Shown: piece by piece, positions 2,621-19,967 of the stretch
Layout of the letters: each line of letters begins with the position of its first letter
Position numbering within the stretch: position 1 is the first letter of the stretch
Source of the DNA: Candidatus Electrothrix sp. GW3-4
Lineage (GTDB): Bacteria > Desulfobacterota > Desulfobulbia > Desulfobulbales > Desulfobulbaceae
Direction of reading: 5' to 3'
DNA length: 32,000 bases
Assembly: GCF_037902255.1 (NCBI RefSeq)
Contig: NZ_CP147990.1
Span: forward strand, 4,410,001-4,442,000
Position numbers and translations under genes: made by a program
Notes under the pieces: generated by a model
What the model was told of the DNA's origin: nothing
Seen by the model: the letters and a program-made list of their open reading frames with translations, nothing else
The model's database searches: none

Positions 2621-3433
2621 TTAGAATTCGGACAGCCCCAGGACATCGAACATGGTGTAGAGTCCCTTGGGCTGGCTGACCACCCAGGCGGCGGCCTTGG
2701 CTGCGCCACCGGCAAAGTTGTCCCGGCTATGGGCCCGGTGGGTGATTTCAATCCGCTCGCCAGGACCGGCAAAGTAGGCAGTATGTTCACCGACGATGTC
2801 GCCAGCCCGAATGGTCTGGATACCGATTTCCTGATCAGTGCGCTCACCGATGATACCGTTGCGCTCAAAAACACCGACCTTGGCCAGGTCTCTTCCCAGG
2901 CCCTTGGCCGCCATTTCTCCGATCTTCAGGGCTGTTCCAGAGGGGGCATCCTTCTTCATCCGGTGATGGGCCTCGACAATTTCCACGTCATAGCCATCAC
3001 CGAGTACGGCAGCTGCCTTTTCCACCAGCTTGAACAGGACATTGACGCCCACGGCCATGTTTGGGGCCTGGACACAGGGGAAATGCTCGGCAGCGGTGTT
3101 GCGGAGGATGGTCAGATCCTCGGCACTGAGGCCGGTAGTCCCGATAACCATAGCCCGACCATGCTTGGCTGCGACCTTGACGAATTCCATGGTGGCCTTA
3201 TGAAAGGTAAAATCAATGATGACCTCACCCTGCTCAATCACTGCCTCCAGGTTATCGGCGATGGTCACCCCTGCGGTGCCGATGCCCGCTATTTCTCCGG
3301 CATCCTTGCCCACATTCGGGCTGCCAGCCTGTTCAAAGGCGCCAGCCAGGCTAAGATCCGGGTGCTGATGCACCATGTAACAGATACGCTGTCCCATTCG
3401 ACCGGAGGCTCCGGCTACAATTACTTTGGTCAT
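2621..3433 (-). CDS. dapB: 4-hydroxy-tetrahydrodipicolinate reductase
   Basis: MTKVIVAGASGRMGQ dinucleotide-binding start and VEAHHRMKKDAPSGTA signature. Start moved from the ORF-track position 3553 to ATG 3433, which gives a typical 270-aa length. Confidence 0.95.
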   Translation of the reverse strand: MTKVIVAGASGRMGQRICYMVHQHPDLSLAGAFEQAGSPNVGKDAGEIAGIGTAGVTIADNLEAVIEQGEVIIDFTFHKATMEFVKVAAKHGRAMVIGTTGLSAEDLTILRNTAAEHFPCVQAPNMAVGVNVLFKLVEKAAAVLGDGYDVEIVEAHHRMKKDAPSGTALKIGEMAAKGLGRDLAKVGVFERNGIIGERTDQEIGIQTIRAGDIVGEHTAYFAGPGERIEITHRAHSRDNFAGGAAKAAAWVVSQPKGLYTMFDVLGLSEF

Positions 3434-3606
3434 GGTTTTCTCTCGTCTTGTATAAAAGTTCTTATTTAACAGCTTGGTGAGGAAATAGTCATAGGTTGTC
3501 CTGCCAATACTGTTGTACACATTCTCCCCGGTCAGCCCTTTGCAGACAAACAATGTCTGCTCCCCTTTTTGGAGAGCATCTGATGCTTGTTGTGGCTGCC
3601 TACCTT

Positions 3607-3837
3607 GAGAAAAGGACCTCTTCTTTTAAGAAAAGGCCTCGTGCTTTTTTAAAAAAATACCGTCCATTTTAAAAGAGGACTGGTCCTTTTTACGAAAGGT
3701 CTTCCTCTTTTTAAAAGAGGAGTCCTGCATTTTTAAAAAGAAGCGGTACGAGTTAAAAAAGGAGTAGTCCTCTCTCAAAGAGGAGGTCTTATTTTTTAAA
3801 GAGGATCGCATCATTTCACGAAAGGACACGGCCTTTT
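3607..3837. repeat. Eleven tandem, degenerate, exactly 21-bp-phased units (plus-strand consensus about TAAAAGAGGA-N5-TCCTCTTTT)
   Basis: Cutting 3607-3837 into 21-mers aligns every unit without an indel. Each unit is a purine-rich half followed by its imperfect complement, bracketed by A- and T-tracts. The array is AT-rich inside a GC-rich operon. Confidence 0.85.
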
Positions 3838-3856
3838 GCAAACAGGGCACCTCCTG

Positions 3857-4267
3857 TTACTGATTGCTTGTCTCCTCAGCTGATTCAGGTGTCGTCGCTT
3901 CTTGTTCAGGGGCAGCCTGTTTCGTATTATTAAATTGAAAGATTGATGAGAGTTGTTTGTGTTCACTGGAGATGATCTGAGTGATGTAGATGAGAATCAT
4001 GACTGTCAGCAGCAACAGGTAATAGAGAAAAAATTTCCTCCTGGATCTTCTTTTCTCTTCCTTCTGATTTTTTACCCATTTACGAAAGTTCGATTGGCTC
4101 TTTTCGATATCATACTCGATATCTGTTCTTCTCTTCTCGTCACCTTGTGTTTCTTCATCGAGCCATTTTCTGAAAGAATCTATAAAGCTATCTTCCGTTC
4201 TGCTTATTACTACTCCTATGAGGATGCCAGCTATAAAGGCGAGAAGAATGGCGAGAAGAATGTCCAT
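3857..4267 (-). CDS. Small two-TM membrane protein, paralogue 1 (unknown function)
   Basis: N-terminal TM (MDILLAILLAFIAGILIGVVI), a highly charged loop of about 55 aa (TDIEYDIEKS...QKEEKRRSRRK), a second TM (FFLYYLLLLTVMILIYI) and a polar tail. Clearly alignable with the adjacent ORF at 4410-4814. Confidence 0.7.
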   Translation of the reverse strand: MDILLAILLAFIAGILIGVVISRTEDSFIDSFRKWLDEETQGDEKRRTDIEYDIEKSQSNFRKWVKNQKEEKRRSRRKFFLYYLLLLTVMILIYITQIISSEHKQLSSIFQFNNTKQAAPEQEATTPESAEETSNQ

Positions 4268-4409
4268 CTGTCTATAGATAGCATGTGATCATCATCTCAT
4301 GCAGTGTGGTCACTCACGATAGGGTGGATGTTGTGATTGTTTCTTCACACATGTGTTTTTTTGCTGATGATCGTTTTATCACCTGATTCGGGTCTCGCCG
4401 CTTCTTTTT

Positions 4410-4814
4410 TCAAAGATTGAGTTGCATGATGTAGATGAGAACCATGAGGTTCAGCGCCAACAGGTAATAGAGAACATACTTTCTCTTGGATCTTCTTTTC
4501 TCTTCTTTCTGTTGTGTTACCCACTTGGAGAAATTTGGCAGGCTCTTTTCGATATCATACTCGATATCTGTTTTTTTCTTCGAGTCCCCTTTTGTTTCTG
4601 CTTTCAGCCATTTTTTGAAAGAATCCATAAAGGTATCTTCCGTTCTGGTAACTACTACTCCTATGAGGCTGCCCGCTATAGCGGCGAGAAGAAGGTTCAT
4701 TTTAATTGCTTCTTGTAACATTTCAGTTGCTGGATCTTTAAATAATCCAACAATAGAAGCAATTGCGCCTAATGCTGCAATTTTATCCCAGAAGGACAAC
4801 TCTCGAAATTTCAT
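4410..4814 (-). CDS. Small membrane protein, paralogue 2 (unknown function)
   Basis: Same core as 3857-4267 (TDIEYDIEKS and QKEEKRRS are identical) plus an extra N-terminal hydrophobic segment (IAALGAIASIVGLF). Start set to ATG 4814 (MKFRELS). That start has AAAGG 5 nt upstream and lies just downstream of the dapA terminator hairpin. The ORF-track start at 4883 would overlap dapA. Confidence 0.7.
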   Translation of the reverse strand: MKFRELSFWDKIAALGAIASIVGLFKDPATEMLQEAIKMNLLLAAIAGSLIGVVVTRTEDTFMDSFKKWLKAETKGDSKKKTDIEYDIEKSLPNFSKWVTQQKEEKRRSKRKYVLYYLLALNLMVLIYIMQLNL

Positions 4815-4820
4815 GACTAC

Positions 4821-4861
4821 CTTTTTATTTAAAAGAGGACGACCCAATAAAAGGTCGTCCT
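4821..4861 (-). terminator. Intrinsic-terminator-like hairpin after dapA
   Basis: Minus strand: AGGACGACC-N8-GGTCGTCCT (9-bp stem, 4836-4844/4853-4861) followed by CTTTTAAATAAAAAG. The T-run is only 4 nt, so termination is probably partial. Confidence 0.55.
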
Positions 4862-4870
4862 TGTAGTCAA

Positions 4871-5767
4871 TTAGATCAAGCAAATAGCCTTCATCTCCGT
4901 CATCAGCTTATTCAGCGAAGCCTCATCCATTTCCGTCATGGGCAGACGAACCTCTGGGGTGGCGATCTTACCCATCAGGTGCAGCCCCTTCTTGGCCGGG
5001 GCCGGGTTGGGATAGCAAAACATGGTTCCCATCAGGGCAAAGAGCTTGTAATGCAGCTCATTGGCCTTGGCCAGATCACCCTTCAGTGCCGCTTCCATCA
5101 GCTCGGACATGGCCTTGGGATAGACATTGGAGGTAACAGAGATAACCCCCTTGCCGCCGATGAGCACGGTGGGCATGGAGGTGAAGTCATCACCGGAGAG
5201 GACAACAAAATCCTTGGGGCAAAGACGAATGACCTCAGAGATCTGATTGAGGCAGCCGCAGGCCTCTTTGATGGCAATGACATTGGGCAATTGAGCCAGG
5301 CGAGCTGTTGTGGCCGGGGCCATATTGGTTACGGTACGGCCAGGCACATTATAGAGCACCATAGGAATATCCACAGCATCGATAATGGCTTTAAAATGCT
5401 GGTACAGACCTTCCTGACTCGGCTTATTATAATAAGGAACCACGGAGAGCACTGCGTCAGCACCGCTTTCCTTGGCGGATTCGGTCAGCTCAATGGCCTC
5501 TGCGGTGCTGTTGGCCCCGGTTCCGGCAATGACCGGTACCCGTCCGTCAACCACCTTAACAGTGATATCAATGACTCGTTTATGCTCGTCAAAGCCCAGG
5601 GTCGCAGATTCCCCTGTGGTTCCACAGGGCACCAGGCCGTGAATGCCGTTGTCGATCTGGAAATTAATCAGATCGGTCAGGCTTTGTTCATCAACCTTGC
5701 CATCCTGCATTGGGGTGACAATGGCGGTAAAAGCACCTTGGATATCTTTTCCTTGTGTCGTCATCAC
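4871..5767 (-). CDS. dapA: 4-hydroxy-tetrahydrodipicolinate synthase
   Basis: Typical DapA translation: GAFTAIVTPM, GLVPCGTTGES, YNKP, and the Schiff-base lysine context VIAIKEACG. Confidence 0.95.
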   Translation of the reverse strand: MMTTQGKDIQGAFTAIVTPMQDGKVDEQSLTDLINFQIDNGIHGLVPCGTTGESATLGFDEHKRVIDITVKVVDGRVPVIAGTGANSTAEAIELTESAKESGADAVLSVVPYYNKPSQEGLYQHFKAIIDAVDIPMVLYNVPGRTVTNMAPATTARLAQLPNVIAIKEACGCLNQISEVIRLCPKDFVVLSGDDFTSMPTVLIGGKGVISVTSNVYPKAMSELMEAALKGDLAKANELHYKLFALMGTMFCYPNPAPAKKGLHLMGKIATPEVRLPMTEMDEASLNKLMTEMKAICLI

Positions 5768-5869: not shown

Positions 5870-6724
5870 TTAAAGCAACGCCTCAGCGTCGAATTCTCCT
5901 GAATAAATGGTATGGGCCGGTCCTTTAAGAAAAACATTATGGACAGCACTGTCAGTTCCTTTCTCCATGCCCTTCTTGAGATCAAACATGATCGTTAGCC
6001 GATCGCCACCAGAGGTGGTGATGTCCACCGGTGAGGCGGCCTGACCCAGGAGGGCGGCAATGATAGCAGAGGCCGCTGCCCCGGTCCCGCAGGCCAGGGT
6101 CTCATCTTCCACGCCTCGTTCATAAGTCCGGACCTTGATGGCATCTTCTTGCCTCTGGGCAAAGTTGACATTGGTGCCAGCAGGTATAAAGGTCTGGTGA
6201 TGGCGGATGCCGCTGCCTATGGCCCGGACATCTGTCTGGTCGATATCATCAACAAAGAGCACGGCATGGGGGACACCCGTATCGATACTGTGGACCGTAT
6301 ATTCTTTCCCCTCCACCTGAAGACGTTGATCCATCTTCAGGTGAACCGGATCGGTCATCTTGACGGCAACATCCTTTCCTATAACGCTGGCCTCAATAAT
6401 GCCAGCCAGGGTGGCAAAGCGCATCTCTGCCGGGGCAATCCCCTGGAGGAAGGCAAAGCGGGCTGCACAGCGGGCCCCGTTTCCGCACATCTCGGCCACC
6501 GAACCATCCGCGTTAAAGAACTGCCATTGAAAATCCGCCTCAGCAGAGTCCTCAATAAGGATCAGGCCGTCTGCACCGGCAGAGAATTTTCTCCGGCAGA
6601 CCTTGGCAGCAAAATCGGCCATGGCCTCGGGAGCAATGATGGGTTTGCGGTGATCAATAATAATGAAATCATTGCCTGTACCGCTCATCTTAATAAAGGG
6701 GACAGGAAAGTCAGGTGTCTGCAT
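5870..6724 (-). CDS. dapF: Diaminopimelate epimerase
   Basis: FIKMSGTGNDFIIID N-terminus and both catalytic-Cys motifs (MCGNGARCAARF and LACGTGAAAS). Confidence 0.95.
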   Translation of the reverse strand: MQTPDFPVPFIKMSGTGNDFIIIDHRKPIIAPEAMADFAAKVCRRKFSAGADGLILIEDSAEADFQWQFFNADGSVAEMCGNGARCAARFAFLQGIAPAEMRFATLAGIIEASVIGKDVAVKMTDPVHLKMDQRLQVEGKEYTVHSIDTGVPHAVLFVDDIDQTDVRAIGSGIRHHQTFIPAGTNVNFAQRQEDAIKVRTYERGVEDETLACGTGAAASAIIAALLGQAASPVDITTSGGDRLTIMFDLKKGMEKGTDSAVHNVFLKGPAHTIYSGEFDAEALL

Positions 6725-8993: not shown

Positions 8994-9019
8994 CCATCGC
9001 GTTCCATATTTCTTAAATA

Positions 9020-9170
9020 TTCAGTTCGTCTTCTGGCTTCCCCTCTCCTGCAGCGGCCTTCCCGTTTCTAAGAGGAAACAGTGACCATAACTGTGCAGGA
9101 CATATAACAGGGGTTACAGCATTGGGTATGCCACGGATTCGCACCGTGTTCCGTTCACTGAACATCATCT
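9020..9170 (-). promoter_or_regulatory. Cobalamin (B12) riboswitch aptamer
   Basis: The minus strand contains, in the correct order, the conserved cobalamin-riboswitch blocks ACGGAAC, GGTGCGAATCC, GCTGTAACCCC, GTCACTG, GGGAAGGCC and the B12-box-like AGCCAGAAGAC. No TPP-riboswitch blocks (CTGAGA, ACCTGATCTGGATAATGCCAGC) are present. Confidence 0.8.
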
Positions 9171-9204
9171 GTTTTTTCTGGCGTGCGTATCGCAGCGCCG
9201 GGGT

Positions 9205-10019: not shown

Positions 10020-11498
10020 TTAATCACCTTGAGCGGGAAGATGTGCTCCTTTCCATACTTCGGGGAGCCAGAAGGGAAGTTCGTCAAAGTCTCCGTGCTC
10101 CTCGGCGGTGCAATAGAGCGTCTTTTTAGGGAATTTTTCTAGTCCTTTAATTTTAAGACTCTTTAATTCTTCCTTAGTGCATTCTTTACGACCTTGAATG
10201 CCAAATATTGTGAAATGCATATTGCGTTTTATATGGTCAGGATCATTAGGTATAAGATCAATTGCTCTCGCCATGTTATCCCATCTTCCTGAACGCTTAC
10301 TCATAACGGTCTCCGGGACGGTATACTGATTATCAATCCAGGTGAGTAAACTACCGCTTGGGGTTAACCCCGAAGCGCTGGCTTCTCGATCTTCATTCTT
10401 AGGATGGAGAGCCAAACTGTAAAATTGGACCTCCTTATTTTTAGAAAGATATGGAATGACTAAGTTAAACAAATTCTCAATGGAATCTGCGGCCCCCATG
10501 TGAACTATATTTTTATATGGGAGGTTAAATCCTTGATTGATAATCTTGTTAACGACAATGGCTCCCATGCTATGCCCTATTATCTCAACACCTAATGTTG
10601 GGCTATATTGATTGCTCTGTATCTTTTCTTCTAGCTTGGCAAGAAATTGATATAATGCTCCACTCCCGGGTGCTCCATATTTCGGAGCGTACTGTACGGC
10701 GTTGGCTTTCAATTCCAAATCAGATGGGGTATAAAAAAGGGTATTCGTTCTCCTCAGCATAATATCCCAGGCAGGCTTGCCCAAGGTATAAGCGAAAGGA
10801 GTCGTGACTACTTTGCTGGGACTTGTTATAATCCATTTTAATTTCCTTCTTACATTCCAATAATCGGCATTGTCTTTTGTACAACGAATGTTTAATCTGT
10901 TTCCGTTATTACAATAACTTAACGAGTCGTATTCTTGAAGAAACGTTGAATTGAGCATGTGTCCCCCTGATACCAGCCATGCCTTTGGGGCGGTGATAAG
11001 TGTATTTCCAATATCGGTTAGGAGGTAGAAGGGGGCTGTCAACTTTGCCCACGGTGAAATGTCGCCCTGCCGAATCCTTATTAGATGTGATCCATAGGAT
11101 CGAATTCCCTCTGAATTCCAATTGATGAAAACCGGATACTTTCCGCTGGCTTTGATTAACGGATAGGTTTCTAAAGCTCTTTTGAGAGCACCAGCTTCAT
11201 GAGCTAACCCTCCGTGTATAAAGAGGACTAGCTTGGCATTCTTGCCATTACTCTTTTTCTCTTCAATATAGGCTCTGATTCTATTTACTATATTGTTTAA
11301 ATAAGCTTCTTGCCCCCCTTGGGCTATCTTGTCTCCAGTTAGAGGTGCTCTCAATTCCCCGTCTTTCCCTATTGTTATTACATGATCTTGTATTTCAGTC
11401 TCATACTGATCTGTTATCTTTGTATCTAGAGGCAGTCCTGTACACCCCGAAAGAAAAAATAGAGCAATCGAGCCGAGCAAATAATGTTTTTTTAGCAT
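10020..11498 (-). CDS. Lipoprotein, alpha/beta-fold serine hydrolase (esterase/lipase-like)
   Basis: Lipobox LFFLSGC, an HGG-type segment (LVLFIHGGLAHE) and the nucleophile elbow GHSMG. Start moved to ATG 11498 (MLKKHYLL), which has AAGGAGG 7 nt upstream. The ORF-track start is 11558. AT-rich gene. Confidence 0.7.
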   Translation of the reverse strand: MLKKHYLLGSIALFFLSGCTGLPLDTKITDQYETEIQDHVITIGKDGELRAPLTGDKIAQGGQEAYLNNIVNRIRAYIEEKKSNGKNAKLVLFIHGGLAHEAGALKRALETYPLIKASGKYPVFINWNSEGIRSYGSHLIRIRQGDISPWAKLTAPFYLLTDIGNTLITAPKAWLVSGGHMLNSTFLQEYDSLSYCNNGNRLNIRCTKDNADYWNVRRKLKWIITSPSKVVTTPFAYTLGKPAWDIMLRRTNTLFYTPSDLELKANAVQYAPKYGAPGSGALYQFLAKLEEKIQSNQYSPTLGVEIIGHSMGAIVVNKIINQGFNLPYKNIVHMGAADSIENLFNLVIPYLSKNKEVQFYSLALHPKNEDREASASGLTPSGSLLTWIDNQYTVPETVMSKRSGRWDNMARAIDLIPNDPDHIKRNMHFTIFGIQGRKECTKEELKSLKIKGLEKFPKKTLYCTAEEHGDFDELPFWLPEVWKGAHLPAQGD

Positions 11499-11695: not shown

Positions 11696-11724
11696 TGACA
11701 AGAAAGAGGGAGGAAGGTAAATTC
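11696..11724 (+). promoter_or_regulatory. Sigma70-type promoter of the orphan cobalamin riboswitch
   Basis: TTGACA (11696-11701), 17 nt spacer, TAAATT (11719-11724). A 5' hairpin GAGCATC-N6-GATGCTC follows immediately. Confidence 0.55.
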
Positions 11725-11744
11725 TGAGCATCTTTTCAGATGCT

Positions 11745-11890
11745 CCTAACCGAGCTTAATAGGGAACCCGGTGTGAATCCGGGACGGGCCCGCCGCTGTA
11801 ACCGGGGACGAAGGCTGCATAACGCCACTGCAGAGATGCGGGAAGGCGCAGCCGGGAGGATGATCCGGGAGTCAGAAGACCTGTCTGGAA
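11745..11890 (+). promoter_or_regulatory. Cobalamin (B12) riboswitch aptamer
   Basis: Near-consensus blocks: AATAGGGAACCCGGTGTGAATCCGGGACGGGCCCGCCGCTGTAACC, GCCACTG, GGGAAGGCG and the B12 box AGTCAGAAGACCTG. Confidence 0.9.
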
Positions 11891-12036
11891 AAAGAGCAAC
11901 CTGGCGCATCGGAGGATATGTGCGCCCAGGTGAACCGTCCTTTTTTTCTTTTTATTGCTCCAGGGGTATTTTTCTGTGGTAGAAAGAAGGGCGGTGGAAA
12001 AAGAGTTTATTCGTGGAAAAACAGGGCATCCTCGAA

Positions 12037-18599: not shown

Positions 18600-19967
18600 T
18601 TACCTTTTCTCCACATTCTGCAAAACAATCCACTGCCCTGAACGCGCACTCCCCTCACGCCTCAATACTCCTTTTGCCTTCAATCGTCCGAAATACTCCT
18701 TGATCGTATCAGAACGCATGGACAGCAGATCAGCAAGTTCCCTGCTGCTGGCTTTGGGGTTTTTCTGTAGCAGCTCTAAAATTTTCTGTTCAAGTTCGGT
18801 GATCGGGGGGTGATCGGGGGGTGATCGGGGGGTGATCGGGGGGGCATCTTCCGTCAATTCAAAACTGACCAGTAACCCTGAACCGACTTCTTCAATGCGA
18901 AAACGGAGGTCAGGATATTCAGCCAGTTCTTTCCGAATACGGACAAAACCGCTTCCGTATTTTTCAATATTCTTTGTTAAATAAAATGCCTCGGCTATCA
19001 GCTTGTTGCGCAGGTGCGACGAGTAACTGTCCGTCTCCAGCTCGGCAAGAGTTAAATCACCGTAGAGTTTCCCCGGACTGAAAAAAGTAATGCTGTTATC
19101 AAAGACCTTGATCTGAATATCAGAAGGGTTGGTATAATCCCGATGGACAACAGTATTGAGCAACACCTCACGCAAGGCTGCCAGAGGATAGGAAAACCGT
19201 TCTTTCCGCTGCAAACTCCCGTCAAATGCAAACGCCACGCGGATATTGGCAATGATATACTTCATGGCCTGTTCCACAGCCTTGAACAGGGTGTCGGTAA
19301 TCTGTCGGTCGTCAATAATTATGCTTGATGTTTTGAAACGTCCGATATGAATATGATGCCGCAACGGTTCATCGGCAAACAAGAGCATGGCCGCCCAAGT
19401 CGGCTTTCCTTGGGAAATAAGTTTGAGTTTCTCTAAAGCCAGCAGAGGGGAGGGGTCCAACATGAAACGACCACTCTGGTTTACTTGGGCGATAAACTTT
19501 TCAATCTTGTCCGGAGACAAGGCATCCAGTGATGCTCCCGGAGCTTCATGGGCATCCCAGGAAATCTGTAATGACTGAAGATAGAGGTCTGTGATCTCGC
19601 TTAACGAGAGCTGATGATTTGAGGTGGCGATTCGCTTAAAATAGCGTCCCTTTGTGTTGACCGGTTTTACCGGATACTCATTAATATGAATTCTGACAAT
19701 CGGTTGATCATGCAGGGTAACGAGTTCTATATCCGGAATAATTGAAGGACTTGTAGCGGACTTAATCTGACCGAGCCACTCGTTGAGTGTTTCTTTGCCC
19801 ACAGATACACCGCAGGGAGTGCCGTCATCCGCTACGCCGATCAACACTGTCCCGCCTTGAGCGTTGGCAAAGGCTACCAGTGTTTCTATGGTCTCACGAC
19901 CAAAGGATTTTTTGAATTCGATGGTCTGGGATTCTCCGGTTTTTAAGAGATTTTCAATGTTCACCAA
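18600..19967 (-). CDS. AlbA_2 (Schlafen-like divergent AAA) + HATPase_c_4-like + C-terminal winged-HTH protein; putative regulator
   Basis: N-terminal ESQTIEFKKSF...VAFANAQGGTVLIGVADDG (AlbA_2 signature). Middle ALREVLLNTVVHRDY (RecG-C-terminal/HATPase_c_4-like). C-terminal ELEQKILELLQKNPKASSRELADLL (wHTH). TTG start at 19967, with GTG as the next codon. Confidence 0.8.
   Translation of the reverse strand: MVNIENLLKTGESQTIEFKKSFGRETIETLVAFANAQGGTVLIGVADDGTPCGVSVGKETLNEWLGQIKSATSPSIIPDIELVTLHDQPIVRIHINEYPVKPVNTKGRYFKRIATSNHQLSLSEITDLYLQSLQISWDAHEAPGASLDALSPDKIEKFIAQVNQSGRFMLDPSPLLALEKLKLISQGKPTWAAMLLFADEPLRHHIHIGRFKTSSIIIDDRQITDTLFKAVEQAMKYIIANIRVAFAFDGSLQRKERFSYPLAALREVLLNTVVHRDYTNPSDIQIKVFDNSITFFSPGKLYGDLTLAELETDSYSSHLRNKLIAEAFYLTKNIEKYGSGFVRIRKELAEYPDLRFRIEEVGSGLLVSFELTEDAPPITPRSPPDHPPITELEQKILELLQKNPKASSRELADLLSMRSDTIKEYFGRLKAKGVLRREGSARSGQWIVLQNVEKR
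18800..18844. repeat. 4 x 11-bp perfect tandem repeat TGATCGGGGGG (coding strand CCCCCCGATCA) inside the AlbA_2/wHTH gene
   Basis: Counted directly; the last unit has G7. It is translated in all three phases as PPITPRSPPDHPPIT. Each unit contains GATC. Confidence 0.95.

Follow-up and report, generated by a model that had tools for sequence, protein, structure and literature searches.

The window analyzed here, a 32-kb stretch of contig NZ_CP147990.1 from a cable bacterium of the lineage Candidatus Electrothrix (sp. GW3-4), encodes on its minus strand dapF, dapA, two small membrane-protein genes (here TM1 and TM2), dapB, an H-NOX gene, and folK. Between TM2 and dapB lies an array of 12 degenerate units of exactly 21 bp each. 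Comparison with orthologous arrays among relatives indicates that the motif and the register of this array are under constraint, with an ancient orthology that can be followed unit by unit. We tentatively interpret the array as a helically phased platform on double-stranded DNA at which a protein would bind cooperatively.

The array and its locus

The features at the locus, all on the minus strand, are as follows:

5870-6724, minus strand: dapF
4871-5767, minus strand: dapA (DHDPS)
4836-4861, minus strand: strong intrinsic terminator after dapA, with a 10-bp stem that has 6 G-C pairs
4410-4814, minus strand: TM1, a small two-helix membrane-protein gene paralogous to TM2 (68% identical over 71% of TM2)
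3857-4267, minus strand: TM2, a two-helix membrane-protein gene (136 aa, no known family)
3605-3856, minus strand: 21-bp array of 12 units without an indel, defined by lag identity and by unit-by-unit orthology with the arrays of L002, L207, and L085 (see below)
3836-3856, minus strand: unit 1 of the array (CAGGAGGTGCCCTGTTTGCAA), with an AACAG half-site (3854-3858) that overlaps the TM2 stop codon
3626-3850, minus strand: 74-aa open reading frame (ORF) of S/K/F heptads, a mechanical ORF that is not conserved; a metagenome gene caller called a 71-aa gene here
3615-3638, minus strand: terminator-like hairpin across units 11 and 12 (GGCCTTTTCTTAAAAGAAGAGGTC then CTTTTCTC), a consensus match only
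3434-3604, minus strand: nonrepetitive spacer of 171 nt between the array and dapB, with a terminator-like hairpin at 3558-3578
2621-3433, minus strand: dapB (4-hydroxy-tetrahydrodipicolinate reductase), with its ATG at 3433

On its sense (minus) strand, the first base of the array is the one that directly follows the TM2 stop codon (3857-3859), as in every array-bearing genome, and the 12 units run from 3856 down to 3605, with unit k occupying 3856-21(k-1) down to 3836-21(k-1). An initial annotation of this DNA had described 11 gapless 21-mers at 3607-3837; these were indeed in register, and the array could be extended to 12 units, the remainder at 3838-3856 being unit 1. Self-identity of 3605-3856 at lags of 21, 42, 63, and 84 was 0.58, 0.52, 0.60, and 0.63, versus 0.26 +/- 0.03 in 5000 shuffles (z = 11.3 at lag 21; the highest shuffle value at any lag was 0.40), and no other 252-nt stretch of the window had a comparable periodicity. 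A repeat search returned one family of 10 copies with a start-to-start spacing of 21 (one of 42). Tandem Repeats Finder, for which the units are too degenerate, reported only 2 copies (3608-3648).

The sense consensus of 60 units, pooled from the arrays described below, was A A G g A s s n C T C C T y T T T w A A A, within which the conserved core AANAG-N8-CTNTT comprises about 7 positions per unit kept at 82-93%. In its palindromic form the consensus reads AAAAAG(g)A-NNNN-TCCT(y)TTT(w); the best mirror axis scored 0.53, versus 0.14-0.41 for other axes (profile of 40 units), and the array consensus has two dyad centres, 10.5 bp apart, with the common half-site AANAG. All units share one orientation and one register. 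A likeness between the unit arms and the base of the dapA terminator (AAAAGAGGA...TCCTCTTTT, 4836-4861), pointed out in the initial annotation, is real: the base of that stem with its flanks (AAAAGAGGA...TCCTCTTTTAAA) matches the arms of an array unit.

The element had also been placed inside a dap operon. The array does stand between dapA and dapB, but dapA has its own strong terminator, and TM1, TM2, and the array have a G+C content of 0.39-0.40 versus 0.53-0.58 for dapA and dapB, so that the module looks like an insertion into an ancestral dapA-dapB junction. No array follows TM1, and neither the TM1 nor the TM2 protein had a match above cut-off in Pfam or NCBIfam.

Orthology, motif, and reading frame among relatives

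Loci of relatives were taken from genome contigs, from contigs encoding TM2 homologues, and from contigs encoding close dapB homologues. The dapB of the window, for which an exact-sequence look-up gave no record, is 92-94% identical to those of Candidatus Electrothrix marina, E. laxa, and E. aarhusensis, which places its host among the cable bacteria. Orthologous arrays were found directly after the TM2 orthologue at the loci listed here; all relatives are short-read metagenome or metagenome-assembled genome (MAG) assemblies, so that these unit counts may be imperfect, although the degeneracy of the units makes collapse unlikely:

L002: 16 units, after a TM gene gutted by the loss of ~250-300 nt; between the array and dapB stands an inserted Uma2-like gene
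L207: 18 units, with an inserted alcohol dehydrogenase gene between the array and dapB
L085: 14 units
L082/L083: 5 units, one of them of 22 nt

Other relatives have less or nothing. L084 has two proto-units only, and E. laxa (L003), E. aarhusensis (L004), and L206 have unit 1 only, as a single hairpin-like dyad (CAGGATATATCCTG in E. laxa, CAGGATGCATCCTG in E. aarhusensis). E. marina, L208, and strain YB6 are without the TM gene altogether, and in L208 dapA stands directly beside dapB. No array was present at the loci of L206, L208, L209, and L210, retrieved by way of dapB, which have other upstream contexts. The initial annotation had expected neutral junk to be absent from close relatives or freely variable among them; the array is absent from the close relatives E. 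laxa, E. aarhusensis, and E. marina, but where it is present its phase is not freely variable.

In the window's own array (W) and in L002, L207, and L085, the 21-nt phase is unbroken from the TM stop codon to the end of the array. These arrays differ only by substitutions and whole-unit indels, and their units pair one to one in an order that is conserved across lineages; between L002 and L207, 17 units could be aligned at 79% identity with two whole-unit indels. Although orthologous units differ by 20-30% substitution and A/T runs are frequent, no small indels were seen in the 252-378 nt of each array. The adjoining spacer serves as an internal control: W and L082 differ in it by several indels of 1-3 nt, and among relatives it measures 176, 183, 108, 69, 84, and 67 nt. 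The earlier suggestion that so strict a period reflects selection is thus borne out, with the register kept in three large orthologous arrays, the motif conserved, and the cores randomized.

Conservation within the unit is concentrated at a few positions. Among the 60 units, G3, C12, and T15 were each kept in 56, T13 in 51, T16 in 50, and A21 in 49, while the weak positions 4 and 6-8 reached 35-45% (heterogeneity across positions, chi2 = 194, p = 2e-30); summed over the profile, a unit holds ~16 bits of information, typical of a protein-binding site. Motif positions were 85% identical between any two units. The cores, in contrast, had an identity at the random level (23-30%) when paralogous units of the same array were compared, and one of 46% (W-L085), 62% (W-L002), and 72% (L002-L207) when orthologous units were; four-fold sites of dapB, for comparison, were 54% (W-L085) and 72% (W-L002) identical. 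Cores that are random between paralogous units yet recognizable between orthologous ones imply duplications much older than the species splits, and they argue against homogenization or concerted evolution and for a motif held by selection.

Array-bearing lineages and array-less, TM-containing lineages all fell in one core clade of the dapB tree. The simplest history on these comparisons would be that the array originated once and was later reduced or lost in the laxa/aarhusensis group, L082 representing an intermediate state; unit 1 was probably the seed. The dating from L085 and L084 rests on only 57-68 dapB codons.

The initial annotation had further proposed that the period, being seven codons, reflects a small protein gene in which the minus-strand ORF 3626-3850 would encode a basic heptad-repeat peptide, for which the present analysis considered lengths of 61-74 aa. 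The 74-aa ORF exists as described, it is preceded by AGGAGG in the window, and one gene caller predicted it; L002 has an open frame of 75 aa with the same stop unit (KHEAFS* / KHETFS*) and shares an ATG-CGN-TCC start with the window. Across the arrays as a whole the frame is not kept: in-frame stops number 5 in L207, 4 in L002, and 2 in L085, a frameshift is found in L082, and none of the six frames is open in all arrays. Information content by putative codon position was 0.74, 0.59, and 1.08 bits, so the third position is the best conserved; orthologous codon changes comprised 4 synonymous and 48 non-synonymous ones, and identity by codon position was flat (0.70, 0.65, and 0.69). A search of 5.8 billion proteins with the ORF retrieved only the window's own gene call, on a contig (L081) that is identical to the window and adds no independent sequence, and there was no Pfam match. 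By hand count, about one in six units has an in-frame stop, which would leave a ten-unit open frame by chance in ~15% of arrays; a stop arises only when the junction between T-run and A-run slips by one position, so that an open frame such as that in the window is to be expected as a by-product. The peptide was therefore ruled out as an explanation of the array, which by these comparisons is noncoding, and we give a gene at this site hardly any probability. Across the arrays, gene callers placed spurious "proteins" of 52 aa (L083, 852-1010) and 71 aa (L081, 285-500); these frames are not conserved from one genome to the next. Repeats whose unit length is a multiple of three can in this way seed false small-ORF annotations in automatic pipelines.

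Several observations concern the surroundings of the array. Within the spacer, 3542-3578 holds two adjacent terminator-like hairpins on opposite strands (TGCTCTCCAAAAAGGGGAGCA on the minus strand; GCAGACAAACAATGTCTGC then TCCCCTTTTT on the plus strand), a pair that could stop transcription from both directions and for which L085 and L082 show no conservation. Immediately upstream of dapB, the gene present differs in almost every lineage (Uma2-like, alcohol dehydrogenase, MurD-like, and others); the site is a recurrent insertion hotspot (window 3605-4814; L208 1451-1979; L002 1831-2397; L207 750-1802; L209 859-2503); the insertions in L002 and L207 start right after the array. Directly 5' of the TM2 start codon, a block of ~30 nt (GATGATCACATGCTATCTATAGACAG|ATG; window ~4268-4300, minus strand) is common to W, L002 (~1300-1330), and E. 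laxa (L003, ~5500-5535), lacks a Shine-Dalgarno sequence, and is retained in L002 despite the deletion in the ORF; possibly it acts as the promoter of an mRNA with a very short leader or none. Farther away in the window, a perfect tandem repeat of an 11-bp unit (GGTGATCGGGG x 4.2, 18798-18843) lies inside a 455-aa minus-strand ORF (18600-19967). The unit is not a multiple of three, so a change in copy number would shift the frame of this ORF, and the repeat could mark slippage or phase variation, or else a spot that is sensitive to assembly. Two cobalamin riboswitches, at 9006-9177 (minus strand; 68 bits) and 11721-11902 (plus strand; 119 bits), scored above the Rfam gathering threshold.

Alternative readings and the favored model

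Apart from a peptide, the initial annotation had offered curved DNA, a protein-binding array, or a series of weak RNA hairpins. The protein-binding array appears to be the best fit to the sequences, curvature is not predicted, and weak RNA hairpins are conceivable but came without covariation. The case for curvature, in which phased A/T tracts would bend the helix upstream of dapB and modulate its promoter, draws on a period of two helical turns and on the A- and T-runs of every unit. Yet a wedge model, the values of which are approximate (controls: 0.46 for GA4T4C, 0.99 for GT4A4C), gave an end-to-end/contour ratio of 0.87 for the array, inside the window background (mean, 0.91; 5th percentile, 0.77; array shuffles, 0.92). 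Each unit is a T-run followed by an A-run, the classic straight arrangement, and the array is kept 0.7-1.2 kb from dapB in L002 and L207, so we regard curvature as very improbable. No match to a sigma-70 promoter consensus was found in the array, so that a promoter cluster was rejected, and no promoter-like site lies in or beside it. A functionless minisatellite is improbable as well. On this account, a 21-bp hairpin unit was expanded by slippage in a rearrangement-prone, low-G+C insert and is now drifting, its period persisting only because slippage adds or removes whole units; the absence or reduction of the array in several close relatives, the variable copy number (12, 16, 18, 14, and 5), the insertion hotspot upstream of dapB, and the low G+C content of what is probably acquired DNA are all as it would have them. 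Uniform drift, however, cannot leave 7 positions at 82-93% with cores at 23-30%, which disfavors neutral junk in the lineages that kept the array, nor would it explain a conserved unit order or arrays free of small indels beside a spacer that accumulates them.

The main rival is an RNA element, which we consider doubtful. The array would then lie in the 3' untranslated region of the membrane-protein mRNA, or between cistrons before dapB, forming a series of A-tract/weak-stem/U-tract modules or a single long fold-back, with a role in partial termination, in processing by RNase III/E or mRNA stability in the manner of REP/BIME elements, or as a sponge for a protein that recognizes AANAG or CUNUU. 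In keeping with it, the seed unit is a hairpin directly after the stop codon that is kept in array-less relatives, unit arms equal the base of the dapA terminator, the last two units form a terminator-like hairpin, conservation is mildly asymmetric between strands, and in L002 the deletion destroys the TM ORF, yet the promoter-proximal 120 nt of the TM gene and the array survive. The whole array also folds better than its shuffles, at -86.7 and -89.3 kcal/mol on the two strands (z = -4.4 and -4.3), but such a fold-back, equal on both strands, is an automatic by-product of palindromic units. The individual hairpins are marginal: the consensus is palindromic, as the initial annotation had it, but the stems are weaker than it stated (58% Watson-Crick at 8 mirrored positions), the mean minimum free energy of a single unit was -1.6 (sense) and -2.2 (antisense) kcal/mol, and 12-16 of 37 units fell below -2. 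Mirrored positions did not covary, with 194 pairs observed versus 198 +/- 3.7 after column shuffling and no pair enriched. Symmetry of this kind, without covariation, is characteristic of half-sites in duplex DNA, not of a stem that is being kept. In Rfam, searched at gathering thresholds over the window and at permissive E-values over 3350-4000, the array gave only sub-threshold noise, and a Rho rut site was rejected on its C/G ratio of 1.1. Nothing in an RNA model demands an exact 21-nt register: helical phasing predicts a ban on +/-1 indels across A/T homopolymer runs, whereas RNA hairpins or linear RNA motifs need none.

A same-face cooperative platform is the best fit to the combination of a register rigid at 21.0 bp, a symmetry that shows no covariation, ~16 bits in each unit, and an array that persists when both of its flanks change. 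We put the probability of this reading at roughly 0.35. The constraint would act on duplex DNA, and the ligand would be a protein. The array would work as double-stranded DNA that presents a row of 12-18 dyad-symmetric sites with the half-site AANAG; a spacing of exactly two helical turns would place all sites on the same face of the helix, and a dimeric or oligomeric protein could bind them cooperatively as a filament, a wrap, or a titration platform, in the manner of operator arrays, iterons, and plasmid centromeres. The array keeps a good consensus where the upstream gene is gutted (L002) or where genes are inserted before dapB (L002 and L207). It is old and selectively maintained, and it probably arose by amplification of the dyad or hairpin unit on the TM2 stop codon.

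A number of points weigh against a DNA platform. The array is dispensable, with 0-2 units in E. laxa, E. aarhusensis, L206, and L084, and it is reduced to 5 units, including one 22-mer, in L082; the possible imperfection of unit counts in short-read assemblies counts here as well. No gene for a DNA-binding, rep, or par protein lies beside the array, whose neighbors are dapB, the H-NOX gene, folK, a PilZ gene, dapA, dapF, and membrane proteins of no known family. Nor were extra copies of the motif found beyond chance upstream of other genes in the window: outside the array, the pattern CTNTTTWAAANAG had 4 matches (~1 expected in the whole window), one of them the flank of the dapA terminator, and AAAAG-N8-CTTTT had 1, with no regulon in evidence. 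Of the two arms, the pyrimidine one is kept somewhat better than the purine one; p is 0.005 for the difference within the arm pair 4/11 and ~0.05-0.1 for three other pairs, which hints at a strand-specific (RNA) reading. Finally, the seed unit is a hairpin after a stop codon with arms that copy a terminator base, which points to an RNA origin.

More speculatively, and on balance unlikely in our estimation, the array could be a single-locus nucleoprotein element of a new kind in cable bacteria, in which 12-18 helix-locked dyad sites would be coated or wrapped by protein, unrelated to replicon maintenance and kept since before the core Electrothrix species diverged. Examples of what such an element might be are a locus that titrates a regulator, or a DNA-anchoring site with the adjacent, always-linked small membrane protein.

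Comparison with known repeat systems

No relevant match was found in the literature on tandem or intergenic repeats of Electrothrix or on 21-bp palindromic intergenic repeats, and the array can be described as a phased extragenic repeat array that is not a member of any named family. Mycobacterial MIRUs (40-100 bp, at ~40 dispersed loci) are likewise tandem repeats between operon genes, with a unit length that is a multiple of three and small ORFs that abut the upstream stop codon. They are, however, not palindromic and are polymorphic without a conserved per-unit motif or orthology, whereas the units here are palindromic, 21 bp long, and have both. With the sponge RNAs CsrB/RsmZ and CrcZ, the array shares a short purine-rich motif (AANAG or AAAGGA-like here) repeated many times within a few hundred nucleotides. 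Those RNAs have irregularly spaced motifs in loops and their own promoter and terminator; in the array, spacing is rigid, the motif lies in the arms, GGA is present in less than half of the sense units (G4, 45%; A5, 72%), and there is no Rfam match.

Enterobacterial REP/BIME elements, with units of ~35-40 bp, stable G+C-rich stems, alternating orientation, hundreds of loci, and a RAYT transposase, bind IHF and gyrase and stabilize upstream mRNA. Like them, the array is a tandem run of extragenic palindromic units that starts right behind a stop codon, between genes of one transcription unit, but its units are 21 bp long, with A/T-rich arms and marginal stems, in one orientation and exact register. 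Out of a source genome of 4.64 Mb, the 32-kb window was scanned, together with ~850 kb of loci from Desulfobulbaceae; neither contained a second phased run, and within the sequence sampled the array is a single locus. A metagenome scan for three phased units (CTNTY-N3-AA-N2-G at 21 nt) matched at least 120 stretches; among the matches listed, none has dapB, dapA, or a TM gene, a result that is uninformative on absence elsewhere, and the high scorers were unrelated and mostly near-perfect 21-bp tandem repeats, which the pattern itself favors. Unrelated metagenome contigs with 21-bp arrays of the same A-run/G/N8/C/T-run layout include L193 (~11138-11305, minus strand), L098 (8014-8118; the same as L132), L124 (~800-1560), L159, L103, L118, and L205, but the pattern forces this layout and selection bias may account for it. 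One such array, AAGACCACCCCCTTTTTAAAA x6, lies just 3' of a SusD-like gene on a Bacteroidota-type contig; another, degenerate and of 5 units, lies in an intergenic region of ~1 kb on a 1.5-Mb contig.

Phased operators come closer in their geometry. ARG boxes are 18-bp palindromes placed 21 bp centre to centre, and LytTR and PhoB sites are direct repeats at 21-22 bp; as proposed for the array, dyad or direct sites at such a spacing hold the bound subunits on one face of the helix. These operators comprise 2-4 promoter sites with another consensus, whereas the array has 12-18 sites and no recognizable promoter. Iterons and plasmid centromeres (the 22-bp iterons of R6K and pPS10, R1 parC, the 20-bp repeats of pSK41 parC, and tubC) share with the array tandem units of ~17-22 bp about two helical turns apart, a conserved core with variable filler, and copy number changes by whole units, and they use many consecutive sites as a cooperative platform for protein binding or titration, as the array is proposed to do. 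They belong to mobile replicons, where a rep or par gene adjoins them, and as a rule they are built of direct repeats without dyad symmetry; the array is dyad-symmetric, occupies one chromosomal site, and has no adjacent rep or par gene, and blastn of the array against plasmids and phages gave only chance-level matches of 23-39 nt.

Taken together, the probable working of the array is closest to that of iteron and centromere arrays and phased operators, while its position and its palindromic units are closest to REP/BIME elements. It offers a clean natural case in which selection on a degenerate repeat acts neither on a coding frame nor on a stem but on the register: seven positions per unit and a 21.0-bp spacing survived while the rest of the units was randomized. 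If its ligand is a DNA-binding protein, the array would provide a ready-made bait sequence with which to find that protein, and the iteron and centromere arrays of plasmids would have in it a rare counterpart on the chromosome of an uncultured multicellular bacterium.

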